A stretch of 29,397 bases of DNA. Source: a virus (Duplodnaviria > Heunggongvirae > Uroviricota > Caudoviricetes). How positions within the stretch are numbered: the stretch's first letter is position 1; every line of letters begins with the position of its first letter. The notes under the pieces are model-generated. The model was not told where the DNA came from. It saw only the letters and a program-made list of their open reading frames with translations, and made no database searches. Made by a program: the position numbers and the translations under genes. The stretch is from IMG/VR virus record IMGVR_UViG_3300035498_002028; one strand, written 5' to 3'. Of the stretch, positions 1,270 through 28,493 are shown one piece after another.

Positions 1270-2322
1270 ATGGGAAATCAAAAGGAAGGAAGAACTACTG
1301 TCTATAACAATATAACTTCCGAAGATAAAATGGAACAGGTGAATCCGGATAATATTCAGTTGGAGAACGACTTTTTGGAGTACCTTGCTTCCATTGACAG
1401 AGCCAAATCAACAATTAAACAATACAAAGCAAATTTACATGTATTTTGGTGTTGGAATCTTGAATTTAATAAAAACAAATTCTTTGTCAATTTAACGAAA
1501 AGAGAAATCTCTAAGTTTCAAAGTCACGCTATGACTGTTTGGGGATGGTCGCCAAAGCGTATACGAACAGTAAAAGCTACTATCTCATCTCTGAGCAATT
1601 ATATTGAAAATATTCTTGACGATGAATTTGAAGGATACAAACCAATTGTAAGAAAAATTGAATCTCCGGCAGATGTGGCAGTAAGAACAAAGACAGTATT
1701 TTCAGAGGATGAATTACAAGGTTTGCTCGATAAATTGGTTGCGTCTGAATATTATATGAAAGCATGTGCGTTAGCTCTTGCCATGAATAATGGTAGAAGA
1801 AAAGCCGAACTGCCAAGGTTTAAAGTTTCATATTTTAATGATGAAAATTTAATTTGCGAAGGTGCATTATATAAAACGCCAGAAAAAATCATGACCAAAG
1901 GTAGAGGTTCAAGAGGTAAAATGCTTGATGTGTATACATTGGCAAGTACATTTAAACCATATCTTGATTTGTGGTTAGATGAACGTAAGAAATTAGGAAT
2001 CACAAGTGACTGGCTATTTCCTAAATTCAAAGATGGACAATGGATTGATGAGCAGATTGATACTGTTCTATTGGATTCATGGGGAAATACATTTTCTAAA
2101 ATGTTGGAGAAACCATTTTACTGGCATAGTTTAAGACACTATTTTACAACTAAGTTGTCAATGGCTAATTTACCAGAAAGCGTTATCCAGGAGATAATCG
2201 GTTGGGAAAGTTCAGATATGGTTCGTTTATACGATGACCAAACTGCTGAATCTCAGTTTGATAAATATTTTGGTGCAGATGGTATTAAGAGTGTAAAACA
2301 AACAACATTAACAGAATTATAA
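1270..2322 (+). CDS. Tyrosine recombinase (XerC/D- or integrase-like)
   Basis: Catalytic set R (NNGRRKAEL), K (TKGRG), HxxR (HSLRH), W (IIGW), Y (VRLYD); N-terminal core-binding helices (RAKSTIKQY). Confidence 0.92.
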   Translation: MGNQKEGRTTVYNNITSEDKMEQVNPDNIQLENDFLEYLASIDRAKSTIKQYKANLHVFWCWNLEFNKNKFFVNLTKREISKFQSHAMTVWGWSPKRIRTVKATISSLSNYIENILDDEFEGYKPIVRKIESPADVAVRTKTVFSEDELQGLLDKLVASEYYMKACALALAMNNGRRKAELPRFKVSYFNDENLICEGALYKTPEKIMTKGRGSRGKMLDVYTLASTFKPYLDLWLDERKKLGITSDWLFPKFKDGQWIDEQIDTVLLDSWGNTFSKMLEKPFYWHSLRHYFTTKLSMANLPESVIQEIIGWESSDMVRLYDDQTAESQFDKYFGADGIKSVKQTTLTEL

Positions 2323-2392: not shown

Positions 2393-4318
2393 ATGTCTGA
2401 TTTTACAGCTAAAATTATAGCTCAATTAGATACTTCCAAAATACCAAGCCAAATTTCACAGATTGGTAAAACCGGAATCAATCTGAGTAATGTTAAAATA
2501 AAGAATGTGCAGATGGATACAAGCAAACTTGCATCTCAAGTGCAAGCTGCATTAAACCGACAGAAGTTTACAATAAATATCTCAAAAATTGGTTTAGGAA
2601 ATGTATCTAATTTTGCAACTAGCAGTCTGACAAAGAGTTTAACTGATAGAATAAATTCTCAAATTAGTAGTGGCGGTATTGAAGCATCTATCGCCAAAGT
2701 AACTGCTCAGTATGAGAAGTTAGGCACCACAGGGCATTCAAAATTATCACAAATAAAAAGTGATATCGAAACCCTAAATAAACTGCAATCGCAGATGAGC
2801 ACATCATCAAATAGCAAGGCTTTGGTTAGCAATTATGAGAAGTTTAATGAGACGCTTGCCAAAGTAAAAAATAATTTAACAACAGTATCAGCGGAAAGTA
2901 AAACTTTTGCAACTAGCTTTCAAATAAATACTCTTGACAATAAGATATCTCAGTGGGCTGCAAATAATTCAAGGGCAATGTCTACTTTTGGTGCTGATAT
3001 TGCAAATGTGCAGTCTCAATTAAGAGCACTTGCAAGCTCTGGCGAAGTTCCACTGTCAAGTTTAAAATCGCTTGAGAATGAATTTAAGAATATTTCTTTA
3101 GCAGCTACGCAAGCTGGATTAACCGGAAAAACATTTGGCGATACAATGCGTGGCGCATTCTCTAGCATTACAAAGTATGTATCTGTTTCCACAGTCATTT
3201 ATCAATCAGTTCGTGCAATCAGAGAAATGGTTGATAATGTATACGAAGTTGATACAGCAATGACAGAATTATATCGTGTTACTAATTTATCAGCATCACA
3301 ATATAAATCTTTGTATGCAGATATGACAAACTCTGCAAAAGAATACGGAGCTTCATTATCAGAGATAATTGATTCTACTGCTAGCTGGGTTCGTTTGGGA
3401 TTTGATTCGCAGACTGCAAATAAATTAGCTGAAATCACTACAATGTATCAACATGTTACAGACTTAGATGAATCTACTGCCGTAGATAATTTGGTAACTG
3501 CATATAAGGGATTTCAAGAACAATTAGACGAATTATATTCTGGCGATTCTGCCGCAGCCGTAGAATACGTTGCCGATATTTTCGATAAACTTGGTAACGA
3601 ATTTGCTGTTACAGCCGCAAATGTCGGTGATGGACTGACAAATTGTGCTTCTGCCTTAGAGGTAGCTGGTAACTCAATTCAAGAATCAGCTGCTATGGTA
3701 ACTGGTATTACGGAAGTTACACAAGATGCTTCCAAAGCGGGCAATGCTTTAAGAACGTTATCTATGCGTTTGCGTGGTACAGACGCAGAAGAATTGGAAG
3801 CTCTTGGAGAAGATACAGAAGGATTGATTTCTGTAACATCGAAACTCCAAGACAATATTAAATCGCTCACCGGAGTTGATTTAGTGGATGCAGAAGGTCA
3901 ATTACGTTCTACATATGATGTAATGTCTGACCTGGCAAAAGTTTGGGATTCGTTAGATGGAAATACTCAATCAAACGTTTTAGAAACTATTGCAGGTAAA
4001 AATAGAGCTTCTGATATTGCCGCTCTTTTGAAAAACTGGAATCAAGTTGAATCAGCGATGCAAGCTGCTACTAACGCCGAAGGTACTGCTGCGCAAGAGC
4101 AGGAAACATGGAGCGAACACATACAAGCATCAGTAAAAAAATTACAGGCTTCTTGGGAAGCTCTTTCTAATACAATTATAAATTCCGATTTCTTAAAAGC
4201 ATTAGTAGATTCTGGAACATCACTTCTTGATTTACTTGACAATTTAATTTCAAAGTTTGGAACGATACCAACGCTTTTAGCTGGTATAGCTGCGGCTATG
4301 TCATTCAAAAATGTCGGT
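2393..4318 (+). CDS. Tape measure protein, exon 1 (TP901-type TMP core domain)
   Basis: ATG 2393 follows GGAGGT; typical motifs (VDTAMTELYRVT, AGNALRTLSMRL, RSTYDVMSDLAKVW, IAGKNRAS). The unspliced frame runs to TAA at 4342; the proposed 5' splice site follows GGT 4316-4318. Confidence 0.88.
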
Positions 4319-4709
4319 AGGGATAAAATGTTTTCCCTCTAATCTTAAATGCCGACAGTTGTGAAATTTCTATTGGATACAATAGTTTAGACACAACGCT
4401 CAATGAAATACATTGAGTTAAACGAAGTCTCAATATGCGAGGAAAATGGTACACTGTAACTACTCTCCTACTATGGCAACATAGATAGGTTCGTAACAAT
4501 GTTGCACTCCATTGGTTCGCAGGGATAGTTCTCTTTGAGAAAAGCCCTCACTGTAGCGACAACAGATGGTCGTGGTTATATGCAACGATGCCACGGTAAT
4601 ATGCGCTCGGAACTAACCGAAGTATGACGGTATTATTATAGTAGGAATCCTATCTCCTTCTCTCATACATGCTTGACCCTATGATATAAAGGGTAAAATA
4701 GGAGTTATA

Positions 4710-5006
4710 TCACCACTTATATCCACAATTTTGACATTCAAATTGTGAACGTGCTGTTTTACTAAATAAACCAAAAGCATATCCATGTAACACCCTTTTC
4801 GCATAGGATATTGTTTTAATATTAGTGGATTTACAAGTTGGACATATAGGAATATTACTTTGTTTCACTATTTGTTCTCTTCGTTCCAACTGGTCTTGTT
4901 CTGATTGTTCATCCGAATAAGGAACAAGCCGATTTCTGTCGTTGAGACAATAATAATCATTTGGTTGGTTGTAAATACGTTTGCACAATGGACAAATTTT
5001 CATCAT
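4710..5006 (-). CDS. Intron-nested antisense zinc-ribbon protein, function unknown
   Basis: 98 aa with CPLC, CPTCKSTNI and CQNCGYKW plus a short FGLFS hydrophobic patch; AAGGGGGA RBS; no HNH, GIY-YIG or LAGLIDADG motif seen. Confidence 0.8.
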   Translation of the reverse strand: MMKICPLCKRIYNQPNDYYCLNDRNRLVPYSDEQSEQDQLERREQIVKQSNIPICPTCKSTNIKTISYAKRVLHGYAFGLFSKTARSQFECQNCGYKW

Positions 5007-5010
5007 TAAA

Positions 5011-5056
5011 TCCCCCTTGATAATATTATTATATCATCTTTTTTGTAGCTTTTCAA
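5011..5056 (-). promoter_or_regulatory. Sigma70/SigA promoter and RBS for the antisense gene
   Basis: Minus strand: TTGAAA (5056-5051), 17-nt spacer, TATAAT (5033-5028) with extended TGn; RBS AAGGGGGA (5018-5011). Confidence 0.8.
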
Positions 5057-5083
5057 TATACAAGCAAGATTGAAAATAGTTCG

Positions 5084-8000
5084 ATTTTTAGAAATTTATC
5101 TACTGAATTAGATGGATTTATCAATCAAGTGGGTATTGCTAAAACAAGTATTGCTGATTTAGTCAATGCATTTAACGCTGGAAGTTCTGGGAAAACTGGC
5201 GCTAGTGGACTTTTTAGCGGATTATCTGCCATGCAAAATTCTGTTAGCAGCGGAATTACTCAACAAGACATTGTTAATATACAAGCCTATAATGACCAGA
5301 TAGATGCTTGTGTTGGTTCACAAACTGCTTTTTATAGAACAATGCTTTCCTCTTCAAAAGCAGCGCAAGATATGGTTGCTGAATGTAATGGTGGAAAAGT
5401 TGCGCTTTCTGGACTAACCGCTGCTGAAAACACTTCCTTGGGAGCTACAATCGCGCTAAAAGTTGGAGTTATAGCCCTTAATGTTGCTTTAACAATGGGA
5501 TTGGCATTGGCTATTCAAGCTGTTATTACAGGTTTAACAAAACTTGTAAATGCTAAGAAGGATGCAGCTGATGCAGCTCAGACAGCCGCAAGTGAAGCAA
5601 AGACCGCTGCCGAAACCGCCAAAGAAGAAGCGGATTCTATTGACGAGTTAATTGAAAAATATAAAGAACTCAAAAATAGTGACACTCAAGATTCTTCCAC
5701 AAGAGCTGAAATTGCAGATATTCAATCACAAATCGTAGACCTTGTTGGCGACCAGGTAGAGAATTTAGATTTGGTCAATGGCAAATTAGACGAACAGATT
5801 GAAAAGTTAAATGAAGTCAAACAGTTGGAAGCCGAAAAAGCTCTTGATTTTGCAAATACGGCATATACAACAGCAAAGAAGGCTTCTGATACTGCTATCG
5901 GTGACGATAGTGTTGGGTTTTCTAGCGGCTATGAGTATTCCGGAAAAACATCATACTCTGAGAAAGAATTAAGAAATGCACTTGGCGAATATTATCAAGC
6001 TGTAAGTAAAAGACCAATATTTGGCACATACGGAGTAAATTTAACATCTAACGAACAAAACCTCGAATTTTCTGGCATTGATGTGAGTACAATCGAAGGC
6101 AAAATTGATGCATTAGAGGAAATGCGCAATAGATTGTCAACATTGGAAGGATATGCCGATGATGACTTATATACCGGATTAGGTACTGCTATTGAAAAAT
6201 ATCAAGAGTTGTTAGACGAGGAAACTGATTCTGCTAAATCATTGATAGAACGTGCTGCGGATGTTGAATCTTATAACAACGATATAATTGTAGATAGTGC
6301 TGAAACATATGAAGAATATCGTAAGAAATTGATTGATTTAATTTCTGATAATGATTATATTTCTGGTAAGCTCTCTAGCGGCGATATAAGTACAGACCAG
6401 ATTGAAACATATGTGAATGACTATATGGCTTCACTTGATACATTTTCTGATTACTATGATGAATGGGCTGAAAAGTATAATTCTACCACGGAATCAGTGA
6501 ATGATGGTGAAGTGCCATTGGCTGGAATTTCCAAAGCTATAGCAGATGAAACAAAACGAGTAGAAAAGTTTTCAGAACTCACAAAGAATTTTAGTGATGA
6601 AACAAAAGAATGGTTTAATGGTCTTAGTGATAGTGACCAAGATATTGTATATGATATCAGCTTAGAAGTTGATGATTCTGCGACATTTACTTTAGAGAAA
6701 TGGAAAAGTGAATTAGAGACTGTCAAAGAAACTGGAAAGACTACTGAATCTTCATTACAAGATTTTTATGATTTAATGCAAGATACAGATGATGGTAATT
6801 TTTCAACAGTTATTGATGATTTTACTTCACAGCTTGATACATTACAATCTGCGTTAGATAATTACTATTCCGGAAATTTATCAAATTCAGATATTTTCGA
6901 TTTAATGCAGAATTTCCCGATTCTTACTCAATATGCAGATGATTTGGGAACTGGAATCAAAGTTGCAATGCAGGATATAATCGGCAGCACAAGTGACGCT
7001 GGTTCTGTTATGGAAGTATTTGATGAACAGATACAAGCGGTTGGTGAGAATTCTGCTGCTGCTGATGCTTTGAGAACACTTAGAGACGAAATGCTTAGTC
7101 TTTATAGTGTAGCTGACGATGGCTTTTCTTTTAAGATAGATGCAGAGATTGGTCATATGGATACTGTATATGACGCTATCGAAAAATCTGTTTCTTCTAC
7201 GGGATTAGACACTGATACTATTAACAGTGTCAAGCAATTATATCAAAACCTTGAAGGCTATGATGAAAGCACGTTATTTGAAAGAACTGCGAATGGTATT
7301 CACTTAAATGTTACTGCACTCAGAGAACTTGAATCGGAATACGAGAAGCAAAAGAAAAGTGAAATTGATAGTCATTTAGATGATTTGATTAGTCAGTACA
7401 ATGACTTAACGGAGCAAATCAATGATTGTAGCGATGCGGCTGGAACTGCGGATTTATATGCTCAAAGGGCTGATATATTAGAGCAAATCAATGATACAGC
7501 GGATTTAGCTGCACAATACGAAGGACTTACATCGGCATTTAATAAGTGGGAAGAAGCGCAATCTACACCAGATGAAGATGATATGTTTACAACCTTATCT
7601 GACGGTCTGGATGATATTAAAGAATTGTTTGATTCCGGCAGAGTTGGTGTCGATGATTTTAGAGAAGCTGTACAGCTTATGACAGATACAGATTTGTCTA
7701 CTGCATCTGTTGAAGAGCTTATGTCTGTATATGACAATGGCTTTTCTACTATGAAACAATTTTTCACTGGAAGCCAGGATGGATTATTACAATTTCTAAA
7801 TACTGCGAAAACAGTGAGCGATGAGCTTGGTGAAGATTGGGTCAAGTTAGACGAAAACGGAAATTGGTCTGTCAACCTCGGCGTTGGTGGCGATGAAGAA
7901 CTTGCAAATGCAATCAATGAAATGACAGATTTGCAAATGTCAACAGAAGAGGTTCAAATTCTTTTAAGAGCAATGAGTGCTTATGGATTTGATGTCAATT

Positions 8001-11000
8001 TAGATTCTGCATATTCATCTTTTGAATTATTGCAATCAGATGCGGAAGAAGCAAATGATAAGTTAAAAGAATTATCTAAGACCGATTATACTTTTACGTT
8101 TGATACTCAAAGCATTGATGATGTAAATGAGCAAATAACAAAAGCCCAGGATATCCTTGACACTTTTAAGGATACGGATGGCAATGTCGATGTGAGCATA
8201 GATGGCGCACAAGAAGCTCAGACAATATTAGGTACTCTCATATCTAATAAGCAGACATTAACTGCGCCAGAAGTAATGCAGATTGATACTACTGCTCTAT
8301 CAGATGTGGATACAGATATATCAAATGCCATTAGTTTGATGCAGGAATTTACGAAATATTCCAATGACCTTGAGATTGAAACATCGTTAGGAATTGATAC
8401 CTCTGATACACAAGAGAAGTTACAAAATGTAGCTTCTAAATTGGATGAGGTTCCGGATGAAGTAAAAACCAAGTTGGAATTGGATGATGAGGATTTTCAG
8501 ACTGCATTAACTAATCTTTCTAATACGGAAGTTGATGTTAGTACTGGTGTCACCTTAAATAGTGAAGATATTGAAAGTGTCCAGTCTGCAATAAATGGTA
8601 TTAAAACCAAAGATATTGAGTTGCTGACCAATTCTTCCGAAGTTACAGAAGCATTGGATGGAATTGATGAATATACGATTGATGACAAAACTTTTAATGT
8701 TTCCATAGACAACAATCCTATGATGGAACTTTATAGCATCAATTCATATGTAATAAAGGATAAGACATACAAAGTAACCGCAGAAACTTCTTCATCTGGA
8801 ACAAGCGATGCTCAAGGTTCGGCATATGCAAAGGGCGTAGCTTATAATTCCGGAGATTGGGGAATTAAAAATAGCGGCACTGCTTTAGGTGGTGAATTAG
8901 GGCAAGAACTTGTTGTACGTGATGGTAAATATTTTACTATCGGTGACAATGGTGCGGAATTCTTCAATTATAAAAAGGGCGATATTATTTTCAATGCAGC
9001 ACAAACCAAAGAGCTTTTTGAAAATGGTAGAGTTACAAGTTATGGTGGAAGAGGAAAATCTTTTGCAAAAGGTACTGCTTTTTCTAATGCTCAAGGTACA
9101 ATGTACAATAAGGGAGATGTTGTAACTGTTGGAAAAGTATCTAGTAGTAACGACAACAGTAGTAGTAGTAAAAGCAATTCTAAAACCGCACTGGAAAAAT
9201 TCCAAGAATGGTTCTCAAAACTGTTTGACTGGATTGAAATTAAACTTGAAAGACAAGCAGATAAGATAGAAAAATATACAACCAAAGCCGACAATGCTCA
9301 AAATAATGGAAACTATAAAAGTGCTGCTAAAAATTATAGGAAAGCTATAAACGCAACCACAACCCAAGTTTCTTATGAACAAAAAGCAGCGTCTAAATAT
9401 AATACACAGGCTAATTCTGTCTTAAAGAAAGCTGTGTCTATGGGTGTTGTTTCTCAAAAGCAAGCTAATTCTATTGCCAAAAAAGTAAAGTCTGGAAGCA
9501 TGAATATATCTGAGTATTCAGATAAAATTCAAGAGGTTATCAAGGACTACCAGGAATGGTATGAAAAATCCAAGAGCGCCAAAGATGCTATTACTGAATT
9601 ACATCAGTCAATCCGTGAATATATTCAAGACTTAAAAGATGTTCGTGATGCTCAAAGAGATGCAAAGCTGGAAAGTATAGACACATACTCTTCTATCGGA
9701 ACATCTGGCGTTACACAAACATCTGCTGCTAAAAATAGCCAACTCAATTATACAAATTCGCAATTAAAGTCACAGAATGGCGCATACGATACGGAAGTTA
9801 AAAATGTTTCCAGTGATACAACCTCAGTTGGTAAAACAGGAACTAAAGCTATCAATAAAGCGTTAAAAACCAGTGACGCAAAGAAGAAAAAGGTTTACAA
9901 GAAAGCCCTTAACAATGCGAAGAAGGCTATTGAATCGAAGCAGAAAGTTTCAAGCGCTGATTTAAAGACAATTAAGAAATACTCTATTTCTGTTTATGAA
10001 AAGATATATGCATATAATATTGCTTTAGATAATCTTGAAACAGCAAAGTTAGAGCAGGCTACAAATTACGCAGCCACAAGTTCGGAAATCTATCAAAATA
10101 TTGCTGAAACATATAGCAATATGGATGAAGAGACGAATGATAATATTAGCTTATTATCTCAAAAGGCTAATAATGCTACGACTGCAAGTGCGAAGAATAG
10201 CTATCTTTCACAACAAGCAGCTCAGTATGATACTATATTGTCAAATGACGATGCAGAAATCAATAGATATTCTGCTGAGGTTAGTAGTAATAAAAGCACT
10301 ATTTTAAAGAAAAATGCTGGCACGAGCAAGTATAAGAAACTTGATTCAGCAACGCAAGCAGCTGTTAAGAAAAAGATTGAAGCTGCACGAAAAGCCGCCA
10401 AATCCGGTGTGGCTATTAGTGCATCGGTAATATCCGCACTTGCGAAATACTATTCAAAGGGTTATGTAACCAAAGCGTTTTACCAAGCATGTGTTGACTA
10501 CAATAATGCAATTGAAAGCAAAGCACAAGCAGAAGCCCAGAAAGAAATTGATGAGCAGACAGCTATTGCAGAAAAAGCCGCCATTGGTACACAAATGGTT
10601 AGCAATGTCGAGCAAGAGTATACCAATAAGCTGAATGAGAATAGTTCAAAAACTGCTCAAATTACCACAGCTCAATCTCTTAAAACGACAAGAGGTTTGT
10701 CATTAACCGCATCTGATTATAAGAATTTAATCAATCAGAGCAAGACAGACCAATCGCTTTATAGCCAAGCTGCGTCTGCTATCTCACAACAGATACAGGC
10801 AAATTTAGCAGCTGGATACTGGACAACTGATTCACAGGAATATAAAGATGCCATTCAGACAATGAATGACTACTCTAATAAAGCCGAAGAATGTAGAGTT
10901 GAGCAAGAGGAATGGAATAATGCCATAGCGCAAATTCCGTATACCAATCTCGAAAAGGTTCTTGACTTGTTGGATTCTATCAAAGATAATTACAAGTCTC

Positions 11001-12820
11001 TGCTTTCTATTAGTAGCGCCAAAGGATTAACAGAAACAGAGAGCCAGTATTTAACTGAGATAGCGAATTTGAATGCTGAAATCGCTAGATATCAAGAGCT
11101 TCGCGCTCAAGCATGGAGCGATTATCGGACAGCGTTAAATAGTGCCGACAGTGTTTATGGCGGCAAAACTGCCGATGAATGGTTGGAAATATACTATGAT
11201 TATGATACTTCTATCAATAATCTCACAGCAGATATTGTAGAATTAAATAATTCTATTGCCGACCTTCCATATCAATCAGTCGAAAAGATTCTTTCATTAC
11301 TAGAATCTGCACAATCATATGATAAATCTTCAATAGATTATAAATCAGCTCTTGGTTTAGACTTGAGCGTATCTGATTATGAGAAGCAGATGGAGAATAA
11401 CAGTAAGCAAATTGAGCAATATCAGAAAGAAAGAACTCAAGCATATGCTGATTACTTAAAAGCGCTTTCTAACTCAGAAGGTGTTTATGGCGGCAAAACT
11501 GCTAATGAGTGGCTTACTGAATACAATCAATTTGGCACTTCTATCAATAATCTTCTTGTAGAAAATGAAGAACTCAAAGATTCGTTAAGAGACGATGTAT
11601 ATTGGAGAACATTTGAAAAGGCTCATGCAGCTGCTCAAAGATTTCAAGATGTACTATCCGGTTTGTCAGAATTGATTGATGATGATATGTATTTTGATGA
11701 TGATAATAATTTGACTGAATACGGTGTTGCTCAAGTCGCTAATCTTGTTAGCGAATATGAGAATGCGCGCAAAGAAGTACAAAATTATCAAGCAGATATC
11801 GAAAACTTAAATAAGTTATACGCAGATGGTTTTTATACCGAAGATGAATATACTGAAAAGTTGAATGAGTTACAAGTTAGCTTATTAGATTCTGCATCAT
11901 CAATGAAAAAGTTTTCTGACAGTATTGTTGACATGTATAAAGACATGGCACAATCAGAGTTAGATTCACTTATGGACTTAATTGATGCGCGAAATGATGC
12001 ATTGAGCGCGAAGAAATCCTATTATGAATATGATAAGACAATTAAGGACAGAACAAAGGATATTCAAACACTAGAAGCTGAGATTGCAGCTCTTGAGGGT
12101 GTCGAAACAGCCGAAGCAAAAGCTAAACGTGCGACCTATGAAGCACAATTATCTGATGCAAAAGATGAGTTAGAAGATACTATCAATGAGCATATCTTTG
12201 ATTTATCACAAGATGCCCTGGATGAATTGAAAAATACATTACAGGATGCTTTTGATGATAAATGGGATAATATCAATTCAAATCTTACTGAATTGGCAAA
12301 TCTTATGTCAACTGCGAACCAGCTAACTTCTAGTTCGGCTGGTACTATTGTAAGCACAATGAATAAGCTGTTAGACTACTACGGTATTGACCCTGTAGCT
12401 TCCGGCATTCAAGCCGCTTATGCTTCTGGTACTAGAAATGTTCCTAAGAAACTCAATGCTCTTACCAACGAAAAAGGTAATGAGATTATTGTCACAAAAG
12501 ATGGTATGATTACTCCATTGGAGCAAGGCGATGGCGTTATTCCGTCATATTTGACAGATAGACTATACGACTTAGCTTTGAAAGGTGTACCTACACCTAA
12601 TATAACCATGCCAGACATCTCTTTTCCGGATATCGAAATCCCAGCGACAGAGGTAAGCCAACATTTTGATAGCCTTATCAATATTGAAGGTAGTGCTGAT
12701 GCTGCGACCGTGGAAGATTTGAAAGCACTCAGTAAAGATATTCTTGAAAAGTCATATAACTACACAAGTGAAAAAATCTACAAAGGATACTTAAAATCCG
12801 GCGGGAAAAGATATGTGTAA
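5084..12820 (+). CDS. Tape measure protein, exon 2
   Basis: ORF track 5129..12820; the frame is open back to 5024. Long coiled-coil protein with a TM-like segment near its start and TMP motifs (ALGGELGQELVV, YASGT..NEKGNEII). No convincing RBS before GTG 5129. Confidence 0.85.
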   Translation: MFRNLSTELDGFINQVGIAKTSIADLVNAFNAGSSGKTGASGLFSGLSAMQNSVSSGITQQDIVNIQAYNDQIDACVGSQTAFYRTMLSSSKAAQDMVAECNGGKVALSGLTAAENTSLGATIALKVGVIALNVALTMGLALAIQAVITGLTKLVNAKKDAADAAQTAASEAKTAAETAKEEADSIDELIEKYKELKNSDTQDSSTRAEIADIQSQIVDLVGDQVENLDLVNGKLDEQIEKLNEVKQLEAEKALDFANTAYTTAKKASDTAIGDDSVGFSSGYEYSGKTSYSEKELRNALGEYYQAVSKRPIFGTYGVNLTSNEQNLEFSGIDVSTIEGKIDALEEMRNRLSTLEGYADDDLYTGLGTAIEKYQELLDEETDSAKSLIERAADVESYNNDIIVDSAETYEEYRKKLIDLISDNDYISGKLSSGDISTDQIETYVNDYMASLDTFSDYYDEWAEKYNSTTESVNDGEVPLAGISKAIADETKRVEKFSELTKNFSDETKEWFNGLSDSDQDIVYDISLEVDDSATFTLEKWKSELETVKETGKTTESSLQDFYDLMQDTDDGNFSTVIDDFTSQLDTLQSALDNYYSGNLSNSDIFDLMQNFPILTQYADDLGTGIKVAMQDIIGSTSDAGSVMEVFDEQIQAVGENSAAADALRTLRDEMLSLYSVADDGFSFKIDAEIGHMDTVYDAIEKSVSSTGLDTDTINSVKQLYQNLEGYDESTLFERTANGIHLNVTALRELESEYEKQKKSEIDSHLDDLISQYNDLTEQINDCSDAAGTADLYAQRADILEQINDTADLAAQYEGLTSAFNKWEEAQSTPDEDDMFTTLSDGLDDIKELFDSGRVGVDDFREAVQLMTDTDLSTASVEELMSVYDNGFSTMKQFFTGSQDGLLQFLNTAKTVSDELGEDWVKLDENGNWSVNLGVGGDEELANAINEMTDLQMSTEEVQILLRAMSAYGFDVNLDSAYSSFELLQSDAEEANDKLKELSKTDYTFTFDTQSIDDVNEQITKAQDILDTFKDTDGNVDVSIDGAQEAQTILGTLISNKQTLTAPEVMQIDTTALSDVDTDISNAISLMQEFTKYSNDLEIETSLGIDTSDTQEKLQNVASKLDEVPDEVKTKLELDDEDFQTALTNLSNTEVDVSTGVTLNSEDIESVQSAINGIKTKDIELLTNSSEVTEALDGIDEYTIDDKTFNVSIDNNPMMELYSINSYVIKDKTYKVTAETSSSGTSDAQGSAYAKGVAYNSGDWGIKNSGTALGGELGQELVVRDGKYFTIGDNGAEFFNYKKGDIIFNAAQTKELFENGRVTSYGGRGKSFAKGTAFSNAQGTMYNKGDVVTVGKVSSSNDNSSSSKSNSKTALEKFQEWFSKLFDWIEIKLERQADKIEKYTTKADNAQNNGNYKSAAKNYRKAINATTTQVSYEQKAASKYNTQANSVLKKAVSMGVVSQKQANSIAKKVKSGSMNISEYSDKIQEVIKDYQEWYEKSKSAKDAITELHQSIREYIQDLKDVRDAQRDAKLESIDTYSSIGTSGVTQTSAAKNSQLNYTNSQLKSQNGAYDTEVKNVSSDTTSVGKTGTKAINKALKTSDAKKKKVYKKALNNAKKAIESKQKVSSADLKTIKKYSISVYEKIYAYNIALDNLETAKLEQATNYAATSSEIYQNIAETYSNMDEETNDNISLLSQKANNATTASAKNSYLSQQAAQYDTILSNDDAEINRYSAEVSSNKSTILKKNAGTSKYKKLDSATQAAVKKKIEAARKAAKSGVAISASVISALAKYYSKGYVTKAFYQACVDYNNAIESKAQAEAQKEIDEQTAIAEKAAIGTQMVSNVEQEYTNKLNENSSKTAQITTAQSLKTTRGLSLTASDYKNLINQSKTDQSLYSQAASAISQQIQANLAAGYWTTDSQEYKDAIQTMNDYSNKAEECRVEQEEWNNAIAQIPYTNLEKVLDLLDSIKDNYKSLLSISSAKGLTETESQYLTEIANLNAEIARYQELRAQAWSDYRTALNSADSVYGGKTADEWLEIYYDYDTSINNLTADIVELNNSIADLPYQSVEKILSLLESAQSYDKSSIDYKSALGLDLSVSDYEKQMENNSKQIEQYQKERTQAYADYLKALSNSEGVYGGKTANEWLTEYNQFGTSINNLLVENEELKDSLRDDVYWRTFEKAHAAAQRFQDVLSGLSELIDDDMYFDDDNNLTEYGVAQVANLVSEYENARKEVQNYQADIENLNKLYADGFYTEDEYTEKLNELQVSLLDSASSMKKFSDSIVDMYKDMAQSELDSLMDLIDARNDALSAKKSYYEYDKTIKDRTKDIQTLEAEIAALEGVETAEAKAKRATYEAQLSDAKDELEDTINEHIFDLSQDALDELKNTLQDAFDDKWDNINSNLTELANLMSTANQLTSSSAGTIVSTMNKLLDYYGIDPVASGIQAAYASGTRNVPKKLNALTNEKGNEIIVTKDGMITPLEQGDGVIPSYLTDRLYDLALKGVPTPNITMPDISFPDIEIPATEVSQHFDSLINIEGSADAATVEDLKALSKDILEKSYNYTSEKIYKGYLKSGGKRYV
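10900..11580 (+). repeat. About 110-aa tandem repeat within the TMP (approximate limits)
   Basis: GTGTTTATGGCGGCAAAACTGC occurs at 11151 and 11481 (330 nt apart); VYGGKTA.EWL...TSINNL and IA..PY...EK.L.LL.S each occur twice. Confidence 0.8.
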
Positions 12821-24443: not shown

Positions 24444-26777
24444 ATGAGTGATTCAAAGAAAATTACTGATTTATCACAAGTAGAATCTGCTAGTGATTCT
24501 GACTTGTTACTGTTAGATACAGCAAAGGGTACAAAATCCATTACTGCATCTACATTACTAGCAAAACATGGAGATGTCTCTGTCAGCAGCGAAGATGGTG
24601 CTCATGGTATTAGATACTATAATAATGAGCTTGCATATAATGACGGAGAAAATTGGAACAAAATTAAAACAGGCGGTTCTGCCGTAATACCAGGGGACGT
24701 GACCAACATTACAGCAAAGCCATCAAATAAGAAAATCATTTTGACATGGACAGACCCAGAGGATGTAATAATTTCTGGCGCATATTTATGTCGTTGGGCT
24801 GGAACAAAAGTTGTTTATAAGGAAGGCTCATATCCAACTTCCCCGGATGACGGAACACTTGTTATTGATAGTCAAGTACGAAATCAATACGCTTCGGAAG
24901 GTCTTGAAATTACAGGATTGACAAATGGCGTTGTATATTATATTGCTTTATTCCCATATAGTACAGATGATGCAGAAAATACAAATGAAACAAATAGAAC
25001 TTCTGCTACACCTGCGGCAATACAGTTAGATAATTGTACTTCTGTTTCTGCCACAAAAACAAATAACTCTGTAACAATTACATGGACTGACCCAGCGGCA
25101 ACTAAAAATAACGGAGATTATACAGCTTCGTGGGCTAAAACGGTCTTAGTTTATAAGGAAGGCTCATACCCTACAAGCATTAACGATGGAGTGGTTGCGG
25201 TAGAAGAAACTACACATGATAAGTATTCATCTTCTGGATATACTATTTCCGGCTTAAATGAAAAGACAAGATATTACTTCTCACTGTTCCCTGTATCAAC
25301 TGATGATATTGTAACTGTTCCAACGAACGGAAGTGTATCCGTACTGACAGGTGGTTTACTTACCGTAAGTACAAGTGAAGCGTCACTGTTTGGAAAAACT
25401 GTTACAGCAACTTCTTCTGGCGGCGTTTCTTCATCATCAACTTTCGACAATGAGGGACAGGCTACCATTATAACAGCGTGGTTAGGCAAGACAACTGTAT
25501 CCTCAACAGACGGAGATAACACAGCAGAATCAGAGATTGACATTACATCCTATGCTGATAGCGGATTTTCCGTTGAATTGGCATTTTACGAATTATATGG
25601 CTTTAAAATTGAAAAATCAAATTCCAACCCGGCAAATAGAGTTACCTATCTTTCAGATTGCAAAAATGCATCCTACTCTTCTGCCTATATGGATTATACT
25701 ACTGGAAAGTTTAATTACGGTTCATGGGCTGACGCTTTCTTTATCAAGAATTTAAAACCATGTATGCTTAAATACAATGGTACGGTCGATTACGAATTAA
25801 ATCCAGATGATTATTCAAAGAAAAAGACTGGCGGCTCTTCGGATATCTCAAATACTTCATATGAAGGAAATGCAATGGTTGGTTTCCCTACTATTTGGTT
25901 TAAAACTTATGAATCTGATGGATATCAGTATTGCTATATTTGTTCTAAGCAGCTTGATAGTTCATATAAAGCATATGCTCATATGGATAGTGCCGGAAAC
26001 ATTATGCCGTTTACATATCTTCCAATCTACAACGGTTCCCTTATTTCAAGCAAGGTTCGTTCCTTGAGCGGACAAACTATCATGAATACACAAACCGGAA
26101 CAAATGAGATTACTTATGCAAAAGCAAATAATCTTAGTGGTTCTACTATTTGGTATACCGAGCTTCTTTGTGACAGAATTATGGTCAATCATCTTCTTAC
26201 ACTTATCGGTAAGTCAACAAATACACAGACTGTATTCGGTAATGGATATTATACAGGTGGTTCATCTGCTAGTAACTTATTACAGAGCGGAACAATGGAT
26301 GCTAAAGGTCTGTTTTATGGAACTAATGGAACAGGTGTCGGCGTTAAGGTATTTGGTATTGAAAACTGGTGGGGCAATCAGTGGCGAAGAATTGGTGGTT
26401 GGATTAACTCAAATGGTACGCAGAAAGTAAAATTAACTTACGGTACGCAAGATGGTTCAACTACTACAGGATACAACACGGATGGCACTGGATATATTTC
26501 ACTTGGCTTAACACCTGGCGGCACATCTGGAGGTTACATTTCAGCTTCTACAATGAATGCATATGGATTATTCCCTCAAACTGCTAGTGGGTCAGATTCT
26601 ACATATGAATGTGATGGTCTATGGTTCAGCAATTCTCAAGTAGATTATGCGTGTGGCGGTGGCTGTTGCGGCGATGACTTGCGTGTTGGGGCTTTCTGCT
26701 CGAGTCTGAACGTTGCGGTTTCGCATTCGGGCTGGAGCTTTGGCGCGTCTTTGTCTTGCAAACCTCTCTCAGCATAG
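24444..26777 (+). CDS. DGR target protein; probable receptor-binding/adhesin fibre with two FN3-like domains and a C-terminal C-type-lectin-like variable domain
   Basis: Two copies of TWTDP..W..T..VYKEGSYPTS..DG...GL....YY..LFP.STD; GIENWWGNQW motif; C-terminal GG...GAF......GASL matches the TR. Confidence 0.85.
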   Translation: MSDSKKITDLSQVESASDSDLLLLDTAKGTKSITASTLLAKHGDVSVSSEDGAHGIRYYNNELAYNDGENWNKIKTGGSAVIPGDVTNITAKPSNKKIILTWTDPEDVIISGAYLCRWAGTKVVYKEGSYPTSPDDGTLVIDSQVRNQYASEGLEITGLTNGVVYYIALFPYSTDDAENTNETNRTSATPAAIQLDNCTSVSATKTNNSVTITWTDPAATKNNGDYTASWAKTVLVYKEGSYPTSINDGVVAVEETTHDKYSSSGYTISGLNEKTRYYFSLFPVSTDDIVTVPTNGSVSVLTGGLLTVSTSEASLFGKTVTATSSGGVSSSSTFDNEGQATIITAWLGKTTVSSTDGDNTAESEIDITSYADSGFSVELAFYELYGFKIEKSNSNPANRVTYLSDCKNASYSSAYMDYTTGKFNYGSWADAFFIKNLKPCMLKYNGTVDYELNPDDYSKKKTGGSSDISNTSYEGNAMVGFPTIWFKTYESDGYQYCYICSKQLDSSYKAYAHMDSAGNIMPFTYLPIYNGSLISSKVRSLSGQTIMNTQTGTNEITYAKANNLSGSTIWYTELLCDRIMVNHLLTLIGKSTNTQTVFGNGYYTGGSSASNLLQSGTMDAKGLFYGTNGTGVGVKVFGIENWWGNQWRRIGGWINSNGTQKVKLTYGTQDGSTTTGYNTDGTGYISLGLTPGGTSGGYISASTMNAYGLFPQTASGSDSTYECDGLWFSNSQVDYACGGGCCGDDLRVGAFCSSLNVAVSHSGWSFGASLSCKPLSA
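26648..26757 (+). repeat. DGR variable region (VR)
   Basis: 110-nt ungapped match to 26881-26990 with 20 mismatches, 18 of them opposite TR adenines. Confidence 0.95.
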
Positions 26778-26809
26778 GAAGAGGGAATTGCGGAATGAAA
26801 TGTAGCAAG

Positions 26810-26829
26810 GGGGAAACATTCGTTTCCCC
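26810..26829 (+). promoter_or_regulatory. DGR target-recognition hairpin/cruciform (possibly also a terminator)
   Basis: GGGGAAAC-attc-GTTTCCCC: 8-bp stem and 4-nt loop just downstream of the VR, as in characterised DGRs. Confidence 0.7.
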
Positions 26830-26880
26830 TATTTTAAGTTGTTAAAAAATTTATTTTAAATAAGGGATTGTGGTAACGAC

Positions 26881-26990
26881 TGCGTATGTCGGTGGCAATT
26901 GCAACAATGACTTGCATGTTGGGGCTTTCTACTCGAATCTGAACAATGCGGTTTCTAATTCGAACTGGAACATTGGCGCGTCTTAATCTT
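26881..26990 (+). ncRNA. DGR template region (TR)
   Basis: Non-coding copy of the VR with nine AAY codons in the VR frame; located upstream of the RT. Confidence 0.95.
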
Positions 26991-27115
26991 ATCTAATCTT
27001 GGGATAAAAAACTAAATGTTGCCACAATTCCTCTCCCCTTGGAGAAAATTAACTCGTTGAGAGATGCTGTTAGTAACTATTTTATAGAGAAAGTGGTACA
27101 GAGGATAAGACAAAA

Positions 27116-28246
27116 TTGAAAACTTACAAGAATTTATACGAAAAATTTATATCAGAAGAAAATATCCGGCTCTCAATCATAAATGCTAGTAAGCATAAAA
27201 GAAAAAGAAAAGATGTAAAAAGAGCTTTAAATAATCCAAATTATGAAAAGATAATTGAAGAATACGCTGCAAATTACAAAAATCGAAAACATACACCTAA
27301 AGAAATCTATGATGGTATTTCAAGAAAAAGAAGGACGATAATTGTACCATCCTTTGAAGAGCAAGTAGTTCATCATATGGTGGTCAATGTTATGCAGCCG
27401 ATGTTCAGAAAAGGAATGTATGAACATACCTACGCTTCTATTCCACAAAGAGGCGGTCATAAAGGTAAGAAATATATTGAACGGTGGATTTCAAATGGTG
27501 GTAAAGATATAAAATATTGTTTCAAAATGGACATTAGAAAATTTTTCGATAGCATATCACACGATATACTAAAAGAAAAATTGAGACGGAAAATTAAAGA
27601 TGAACGTTTTTTGAAAATCCTTTTTGAAATAATAGATGTCACTGAATCCGGCATACCTTTAGGCTTTTATACTTCTCAATGGCTCGCCAATTGGTTCTTA
27701 CAAGATTTAGACCATTATATCAAAGAAGAACTTGGTGCTAAATATTATATGCGCTATATGGACGATATGGTTATATTTGCTTCAAACAAGAAGAAATTGC
27801 ATCAAATGAAAGACGCGATAGAATGTTATCTTAAAACTGAATTAGGTCTGGAAATAAAACAAAATTGGCAAGTGTTTAGATTTCATTATATAGATAGAAA
27901 GACTGGTGAAGAAAAAGGCAGATTTTTAGATTTTATGGGATTTAGGTTTTATAGAAACCGGACTACATTGAGAAGGAGCATATACTTCAAAGCCTGTAGA
28001 AAAGCAAATAAAATGAGTAAAAAGGATAAGGTGACAATCCATGATTGCAAACAGATGCTATCCTATCTAGGATGGATAAAATCAACTGATACATATTCAG
28101 CATATGAAAAGTATATAAAACCAAAAGTTGATTTTGGTAAATTAAAGAAACGCATTTCTAATTATGATAGGAGGAACAATAATGTCAAATTTAATATGGA
28201 AAAAGAGCGAGAGCACAGTGTACCCACAGACTGTTGTTGCATATAA
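27116..28246 (+). CDS. DGR reverse transcriptase
   Basis: KMDIRKFFDSI, GIPLGFYTSQWLAN, YMRYMDDMVIF and LDFMGF motifs; 376 aa; TTG start; adjacent to the TR. Confidence 0.95.
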   Translation: MKTYKNLYEKFISEENIRLSIINASKHKRKRKDVKRALNNPNYEKIIEEYAANYKNRKHTPKEIYDGISRKRRTIIVPSFEEQVVHHMVVNVMQPMFRKGMYEHTYASIPQRGGHKGKKYIERWISNGGKDIKYCFKMDIRKFFDSISHDILKEKLRRKIKDERFLKILFEIIDVTESGIPLGFYTSQWLANWFLQDLDHYIKEELGAKYYMRYMDDMVIFASNKKKLHQMKDAIECYLKTELGLEIKQNWQVFRFHYIDRKTGEEKGRFLDFMGFRFYRNRTTLRRSIYFKACRKANKMSKKDKVTIHDCKQMLSYLGWIKSTDTYSAYEKYIKPKVDFGKLKKRISNYDRRNNNVKFNMEKEREHSVPTDCCCI

Positions 28247-28493
28247 CGATTATGCTTACATTCGTAAAAATGTGGTGGTCGAAGAAAGAAAGTATGAAAA
28301 TAGCGACGATGTTGTTAATTTCTATGTGTACGATGAGTGTCTTACAACGCCTAATGCAGCAATTGAGTGGTTAAATGAGCAAAATTCTGCGTTAGTTAAA
28401 AAGAGTGCTGAGCTGAGTGATTATATTGATAACATTTTAACCGATGTAATTCCAACAATTGTTGATGAAATTACTAATGTGACGGAGGAATAA
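28182..28493 (+). CDS. Small phage protein, possible fibre-assembly chaperone
   Basis: ATG 28182 follows AGGAGG; beta-rich N-terminus (YIRKNV) and coiled-coil end; overlaps the RT end by 65 nt. Confidence 0.6.
   Translation: MSNLIWKKSESTVYPQTVVAYNDYAYIRKNVVVEERKYENSDDVVNFYVYDECLTTPNAAIEWLNEQNSALVKKSAELSDYIDNILTDVIPTIVDEITNVTEE

Follow-up and report, generated by a model that had tools for sequence, protein, structure and literature searches.

A predicted group I intron with a double-bulged P7 in a phage tape measure gene

Group I introns in phage virion genes

Splicing of group I introns proceeds by two transesterifications with the guanosine bound in P7 (PMC3984707), and such introns have been described in genes for phage virion proteins. 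Tape measure genes of Bacillus cereus-group prophages contain the introns TMP-IVS1, IVS2 and IVS3a/b (Tourasse and Kolsto, 2008; PMC2504315), and in cluster J mycobacteriophages capsid and tail genes are interrupted by introns whose splicing was demonstrated by reverse transcription-polymerase chain reaction (PMC3706429). Here these and other systems are compared with a stretch of 29,397 nucleotides (nt), called the window, that belongs to a 101-kb virus record (IMGVR_UViG_3300035498_002028), metagenomic and 65% complete according to CheckV. In this window a group I intron very probably interrupts the tape measure gene and splices itself out as predicted, as is indicated by its helices, their covariation and the match of the exon junction to intron-less proteins. 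A preliminary description of the window had stressed that phage group I introns mostly sit in DNA-metabolism genes; with introns of structural genes already published (PMC2504315, PMC3706429), the placement is less surprising.

The TMP-IVS introns resemble the intron of the window in the gene that they occupy, in their phase-0 insertion after a U and in a stop within the first 27 nt. In both cases different cores are found at one site through a common P1, and most introns have no homing endonuclease. The TMP-IVS introns belong to classes IA1 and IA2 and match known phage introns, whereas the intron of the window has no P7.1/P7.2, possesses a double-bulged P7, is missed by the Rfam model RF00028 and carries unrelated passengers (PMC2504315). 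The cluster J introns share with it a virion gene and the U and G ends; one of them has an opposite-strand open reading frame (ORF), which encodes a homing endonuclease there and a zinc-ribbon protein in the window (PMC3706429). The IStrons CdISt1 and CboIStron are likewise clostridial group I introns whose core and 3' splice site are separated by genes, but these genes, TnpA and TnpB, move the element, whereas the window has neither and its insertion site is fixed in one gene (PMC10690162). Ordinary non-mobility genes also lie inside the giant ND5-717 intron of coral mitochondria, which however is organellar, holds its genes in P8 and is removed by back-splicing, whereas the cargo described here is in P9, variable and accessory (PMC6545197). 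The available parts of a Bastillevirinae survey, which reports endonucleases as loop ORFs (PMC11878797), and of the Jug phage preprint (10.1101/2025.08.10.669567) do not mention tape measure genes. A literature search, with the older group I literature, the GISSD alignments and supplements outside its scope, gave no paper on cargo-bearing tape measure introns or on a double-bulged P7. Tape measure genes with group I introns are thus already known, and what is particular to this analysis is the double-bulged P7.

The exon junction and the splice sites

The intron separates two tape measure ORFs (Table 1), whose lengths, as given in the preliminary description, were verified. The insert contains 15 in-frame stops, and an in-frame TAA (4340-4342) lies inside the P1 region. 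Joining of the exons is likely to give a protein with a predicted length of 3220 residues, in which ...KNVG is followed by IFRN.... The predicted joint NVG/IF was present at the aligned place in 111 of 120 full-length intron-less homologs (120 listed of 478 matches), nearly all of which fall in one cluster and therefore count as about one independent observation. The related loci L194 and L195 also have NVG/IF at the predicted junction, and many shorter homologs end a few residues past KNVG or its equivalent. The junction proposed earlier thus agrees with the intron-less tape measure proteins and with the covariation described below.

The preliminary description had also pointed to the common frame of the two ORFs. 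The frame is indeed shared, but this is a coincidence, because in related introns the length varies between 692 and 6803 nt and is a multiple of three in only 11 of 29. In-frame ligation is nevertheless kept, as exon 2 of the relatives opens in frame at the predicted site despite all three length classes, its start being partly picked by motif. The shared frame and the neighbouring tyrosine recombinase could also be explained if the halves were joined without RNA splicing, either by ribosomal bypass or by excision of the DNA by this recombinase. However, neither direct nor inverted repeats were seen at the termini of the insert, there is no evident pair of matched take-off and landing codons, the gap reaches 6.8 kb in relatives, and a full group I core is present with U.G and omega-G marking exactly the ends of the insert. 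Such joining is therefore very improbable indeed.

The pairings at the intron ends put forward in the preliminary description, i.e. P1, P10 and P9.0 together with the U.G pair and omega-G, were verified at every coordinate, and the assignment of P1, P9.0 and omega-G is backed by covariation. P1 consists of six Watson-Crick pairs and the U.G pair at the 5' splice site (4318/4351). In an alignment of 17 introns 95.8% of the P1 cells were paired, and the 5' splice-site pair was U.G in 16 and C.A in one. Where its guide was located, P10 measures 6-8 base pairs (bp) in L171, L058 and the L001 group and 2-4 bp in others, the guide having been misplaced by the script in at least L184, L193 and L203. 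In the window, 61 of the 8546 T positions show a P1-like match, and TAGTTCG is present in two copies where about 1.7 are expected. Taken alone, these three pairings are modest evidence. The weight of the case lies in the comparisons, i.e. with intron-less homologs, of the core and of P9.0, and not in single pairings. The dense structure that had been attributed to the whole segment was found in its 5' part (folding z of -3.5 against shuffles for 4312-4700), compared with -2.0 for its 3' part (4701-5083), which is mostly antisense gene; exon stretches of equal length gave -0.7 and -0.95, and the whole of 4300-5100 gave -4.3.

Covariation of P1 and P9.0 among homologous loci, which the preliminary description had asked for, was found in the 17-intron alignment and, for P9.0, in 30 loci. 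These 30 were tested out of 61 loci with a double-bulged P7, after exclusion of 27 without exon 2 in the flank, three without a motif start and one duplicate. Exon-2 starts were chosen by protein motif and not by pairing; those of the L001 group and some others were read by eye and motif, so that they are not blind tests. At least four contiguous P9.0 pairs directly before the G were present in 24 loci, each with its own P9.0. The second pair was T-A in 15 loci and A-T in 12, and over the first three positions 76 Watson-Crick pairs were counted compared with 56.6 when partners were shuffled, a number as high being reached in none of 5000 shuffles. P9.0 thus covaries with a 3' splice site that lies up to 4 kb away. 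This makes sense only if the ends are joined.

Table 1. Coordinates of the exons, intron elements and adjacent features in the window
Feature	Position	Strand	Details
Tyrosine recombinase	1270-2322		
Tape measure exon 1	2393-4318	+	642 codons, ending ...SFKNVG; GGAGG before ATG 2393; PF10145 and PHROG tape measure families
P1	4312-4357	+	TGTCGGT 4312-4318 with GCCGACA 4351-4357; internal hairpin 4319-4323/4334-4338
Group I intron	4319-5083	+	765 nt, phase 0
P10 guide	4347-4350	+	AAAT, pairs with exon 2 ATTT 5084-5087, 4 bp
P2 and P2.1 hairpins	4370-4385; 4399-4417	+	folding and 17-intron alignment
P3	4427-4430/4564-4567	+	GTCT with AGAT; encloses P4, P5 region and P6/P6a; changes on both sides in 3 of 4 pairs
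P4	4436-4441/4516-4521	+	TGCGAG/TTCGCA; changes on both sides in 4 of 6 pairs
P5 region	4445-4513	+	
P6/P6a	4522-4547	+	P6 GGG/CCC
P7	4551-4558/4604-4609	+	C-u-G-u-AGCG with CGCTCG; two bulges
P8	4571-4595	+	
P9.0 5' strand	4610-4615	+	GAACTA, directly after P7
Passenger gene	4710-5006	-	98-residue protein with CxxC pairs (zinc-ribbon-like); GGGGG 5 nt before ATG
Sigma-70-type promoter-like site	5028-5056	-	TTGAAA-17-TATAAT with TG extension, 11/12; 27 nt inside intron 3' end
P9.0 3' strand and omega-G	5077-5082; 5083	+	TAGTTC, G; sequence and covariation
Tape measure exon 2	5084-12820	+	2578 codons, starting IFRNLSTE

The catalytic core and its P7

The identity as a group I intron, assigned in the preliminary description from P1, P10, P9.0 and omega-G, holds, but the catalytic core had been overlooked although it is present. 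Its structure was made readable by close relatives that were found with DNA patterns. The predicted core is complete, with P3, P4, P5, P6, P7 and P8 followed by P9.0 directly after P7; J6/7 reads TCA. All helices of the P4-P5-P6 domain and of the P3/P7 pseudoknot with P8 are present and covary, P3 showing four different pair types at two positions. In the 17 aligned introns 91.8% of 1306 cells were paired and 54 of 77 pairs had changed on both sides, a covariation that was reached in none of 500 shuffles (slid controls were 34-46% paired); the derivation of the structure from the sequence of the window itself and the neglect of relatedness in the shuffles both favour the result. A P7.1/P7.2 insertion is a mark of class IA. 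It is absent here, because only 5 nt separate P7 from P3. A blastn search of the core against GenBank phages returned one 34-nt match.

In P7 the guanosine site is the pair G4553-C4608, U4552 occupies the place of the usual bulge and U4554 forms an extra bulge. P7 of the Tetrahymena large subunit intron has six pairs and the single bulge A263, with the stacked triples A263-C262-G312, G-G264-C311 and A261-A265-U310 (PMC10020454). The window resembles it in the six-pair P7, in the guanosine-binding G-C pair followed by A-U, in the A of J6/7 and in the position of P9.0 beside P7, and differs from it in having two bulges instead of one and a P9.0 of 6 bp instead of 2 bp (PMC10020454). The G-C pair followed by A-U was invariant in the 17 introns, none of which had been picked by P7, and 14 of them have an extra pyrimidine after the G of the guanosine site; L172, L191 and L214 show the textbook single bulge. 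A search pattern that included the extra base matched 102 loci, with the partner strand found in 82 of 89 distinct ones and a tape measure match just upstream in 73 of these 82, and because the pattern already held the extra base these counts indicate its spread and not its frequency. The extra base was U in 70 and C in 12 of the 82 loci, L084 having the C form. It is probably flipped out or recruited into the base-triple stack.

Several observations weigh against a self-splicing intron. P10 is weak, with only 4 bp here, and P7 departs from the single-bulge form and has U in place of the bulged A. Fewer than four P9.0 pairs were found in six of the 30 loci; in four of these six the start of exon 2 seems to have been misassigned, and these four were not removed from the count. 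The covariation counts have the biases already mentioned. RF00028 gave no match in the window or the genome, either at the gathering score or at loose E-value thresholds, so that the Infernal search proposed in the preliminary description fails on this intron. Six weak Rfam matches at the loose threshold (E 1.8-6) were dismissed as chance. The model also missed six close relatives, including L172 and L191 with their textbook P7, so that the extra base alone does not account for the miss. A different-core intron at the same site in L001 was detected at 33.4 bits (E 4.8e-5), below the gathering score of 50. The RF00028 score is a detector and not a defining feature of group I introns. Furthermore, no spliced joint was seen in three small sequencing runs, which are too thin to decide (13-16% word share, 151-nt pieces), and the only RNA run gave two pieces, one to each side of the 5' site, so that one of the two lies inside the intron. 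The 5' junction is covered in unspliced form by the independent run pieces X2 (4286-4433) and X3 (4192-4342), whose origin may be the source sample. This bears on the possibility that the insert is an assembly artefact of an incomplete metagenomic record, which is hardly conceivable, as it is largely refuted by homologous inserts at the same site in dozens of other genomes.

The non-textbook P7, the lack of an Rfam match and the lack of an RNA joint would also fit a dead intron, in which case the halves would be made as separate proteins of a split tape measure protein or the gene would belong to a decayed prophage. Copies of the double-bulged core without an upstream tape measure exon, in L321, L338, L346 and L364, point the same way; they may be truncated or rearranged remnants. 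Against a dead intron, the first four in-frame start codons of exon 2 are not preceded by a clear ribosome-binding site, exon 2 is open over its whole length, its first residues agree with those of intron-less proteins exactly at the predicted site, and the covariation of P9.0 with the distant 3' site is sensible only if the ends are joined. Death of the intron is thus quite improbable. In L338 an HNH-like ORF is located just upstream of the core.

For the self-splicing intron the following course may be envisaged from group I chemistry. Translation would end in the P1 loop, at TAA 4340, and the core would fold. Free guanosine bound at G4553-C4608 would attack at U4318, after which the long 6-bp P9.0 and the short P10 would span the passenger region and place G5083 at the core, and the exons would be ligated, so that in the late transcript ...KNVG is joined to IFRN.... 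Assembly of the tail would need this splicing, and splicing would have to be kept because the tail presumably needs the full protein.

Whether these introns represent a widespread, undescribed and active group I ribozyme subtype in tape measure genes of Clostridia phages, missed by Rfam, with a remodelled guanosine pocket, a long covarying P9.0 and a protected bay for swappable accessory or defence genes, we consider about evenly balanced. The pocket of the proposed subtype has a second bulged pyrimidine between the equivalents of G264 and A265 and often a U at 263. Splicing of this intron, if it occurs, would mean that a natural ribozyme can accommodate one additional base where the group I active site is most conserved, which is testable with near-identical relatives without the extra base (L191, L172) and with it (L173, L189). 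An intron class missed by the standard models would imply that in a large group of gut Clostridia phages the tape measure gene is annotated as two genes and tail length is mispredicted.

Passenger genes, related loci and genomic setting

The antisense passenger gene between P9 and omega-G had escaped the preliminary description. Its zinc-ribbon-like product has no family above threshold in Pfam, PADLOC or PHROGs, and its look-alikes in the Atlas are hypothetical zinc-ribbon proteins. Similar antisense CPTC-type genes are present in the introns of L171, L189, L193 and L214. TnpA and TnpB are absent from the intron, of which the passenger gene is the sole ORF, and no Rfam match was obtained in the window. 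The promoter-like site upstream of the gene is not significant as a single site (three such sites in the window compared with 4.6 in shuffles). A similar site was found at the same place in five of ten relatives examined, and in all ten an antisense ORF starts within 160 nt of the intron 3' end. The P2.1 hairpin scores as terminator-like on the minus strand and could end an antisense passenger transcript after the ribozyme core. With its own promoter-like site the zinc-ribbon gene may be expressed independently of the tail operon. The region between P9 and omega-G would be removed without cost and may tolerate passenger genes, because all of it is excised.

In the window as in the five relatives, the antisense promoter-like site is directed towards the core. 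Splicing might therefore be a regulated step, the intron being slowed or made dependent on a host or phage protein through its changed P7 and controlled, for example, by antisense transcription or a chaperone. The extra P7 base and the A-to-U change at the bulge would agree with this, and protein assistance is common for group I introns (PMC3984707). However, the variant P7 is kept in 14 of the 17 aligned introns with all other helices intact, and no maturase-like or endonuclease gene was recognized among 67 cargo ORFs of related introns or among the 85 ORFs of this genome. Regulated splicing, which overlaps with the preferred reading of an intron that splices itself out, is unlikely in our judgement.

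The 67 cargo ORFs were scanned out of 101 of at least 80 residues in 29 introns, near-duplicates of the L001 group having been dropped. None belonged to the homing endonuclease families HNH, GIY-YIG or LAGLIDADG in Pfam, and no endonuclease was named by PHROGs in this 65%-complete genome. Matches were obtained to ToxN/AbiQ (2), PemK (2), GmrSD_N (5), NYN (1), a holin and a CHAP lysin, whereas most cargo ORFs had no match and some are probably spurious. The P9 region thus offers a definite site at which to search for accessory and anti-phage genes, as ToxN/AbiQ, PemK, GmrSD-like and NYN genes were found there. The self-splicing intron might have spread without an endonuclease of its own by recombination between phages or with an endonuclease acting in trans, both of which are guesses.

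In L214, L230, L239, L245 and L251 the 5' exon ends with C opposite A and not with U opposite G (exon 1 ends at 7561); these introns measure 4.1-6.8 kb and contain GmrSD-like (PADLOC NsnA), ToxN, PemK and NYN genes. In L203 (7885-9255) Holin_SPP1 and a CHAP/peptidoglycan-binding endolysin are situated between the group I core and tape measure exon 2. The intron of this locus, whose exact 3' splice site is uncertain, thus seems to contain a lysis cassette.

A tree of 51 dereplicated loci shows 25 intact ones scattered among the split ones; two errors are known in its automatic labels, as L193 is mislabelled (different core) and L084 carries the variant with C. Because intact loci lie among split ones, the intron, as judged from this tree, is one that was gained or lost several times; well-supported branches force at least six changes. 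Fixation of the intron in the clade is ruled out by the same distribution. Different group I cores occur at the same or a nearby site in L193 (7523-8640), L001, L203, L216 and L252. The nearest tape measure relative of the window is L193 (61%), yet it has a different core. In L007 (4625-7100; also in L013 and L039) an IStron-like element was observed that consists of a second group I core, an IS607-type transposase ORF (read by eye) and a RAGATH-18 RNA. The element, whose right end was not located, thus forms an intron within an intron: its start directly follows TGCTGGG, part of the P4 strand in the tape measure intron, and matches the TGGG target reported for CboIStron.

Matches to the core motif were found at 57 loci of GTDB. 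The P7 was complete in 50, and 46 of these 50 carry names of the class Clostridia (e.g. Lachnospiraceae, Acetatifactor and Ruminococcus). The window contains a siphophage tail module with the tyrosine recombinase, the two-ORF tape measure gene, tail proteins, a CHAP lysin and a reverse transcriptase. The PHROGs scan of the 85 ORFs placed portal, terminase and a second integrase elsewhere in the genome, outside the window. A probable diversity-generating retroelement occupies 24444-28493 of the window, with the reverse transcriptase at 27116-28246, a gene that contains fn3 upstream and an ORF of 109 residues behind it. The same genome has a second reverse transcriptase together with an Avd gene (L378:329-2253; G000 91-93 kb), so that there may be two retroelements. 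The genome also contains a cluster for NAD salvage (L377:13991-17619; G000 85-88 kb) with genes for ribose-phosphate pyrophosphokinase, nicotinamide phosphoribosyltransferase, NAD synthetase and a nucleotidyltransferase, followed by tRNA-His guanylyltransferase. We take this cluster to resemble the NAD-rebuilding counter-defence pathways of phages.

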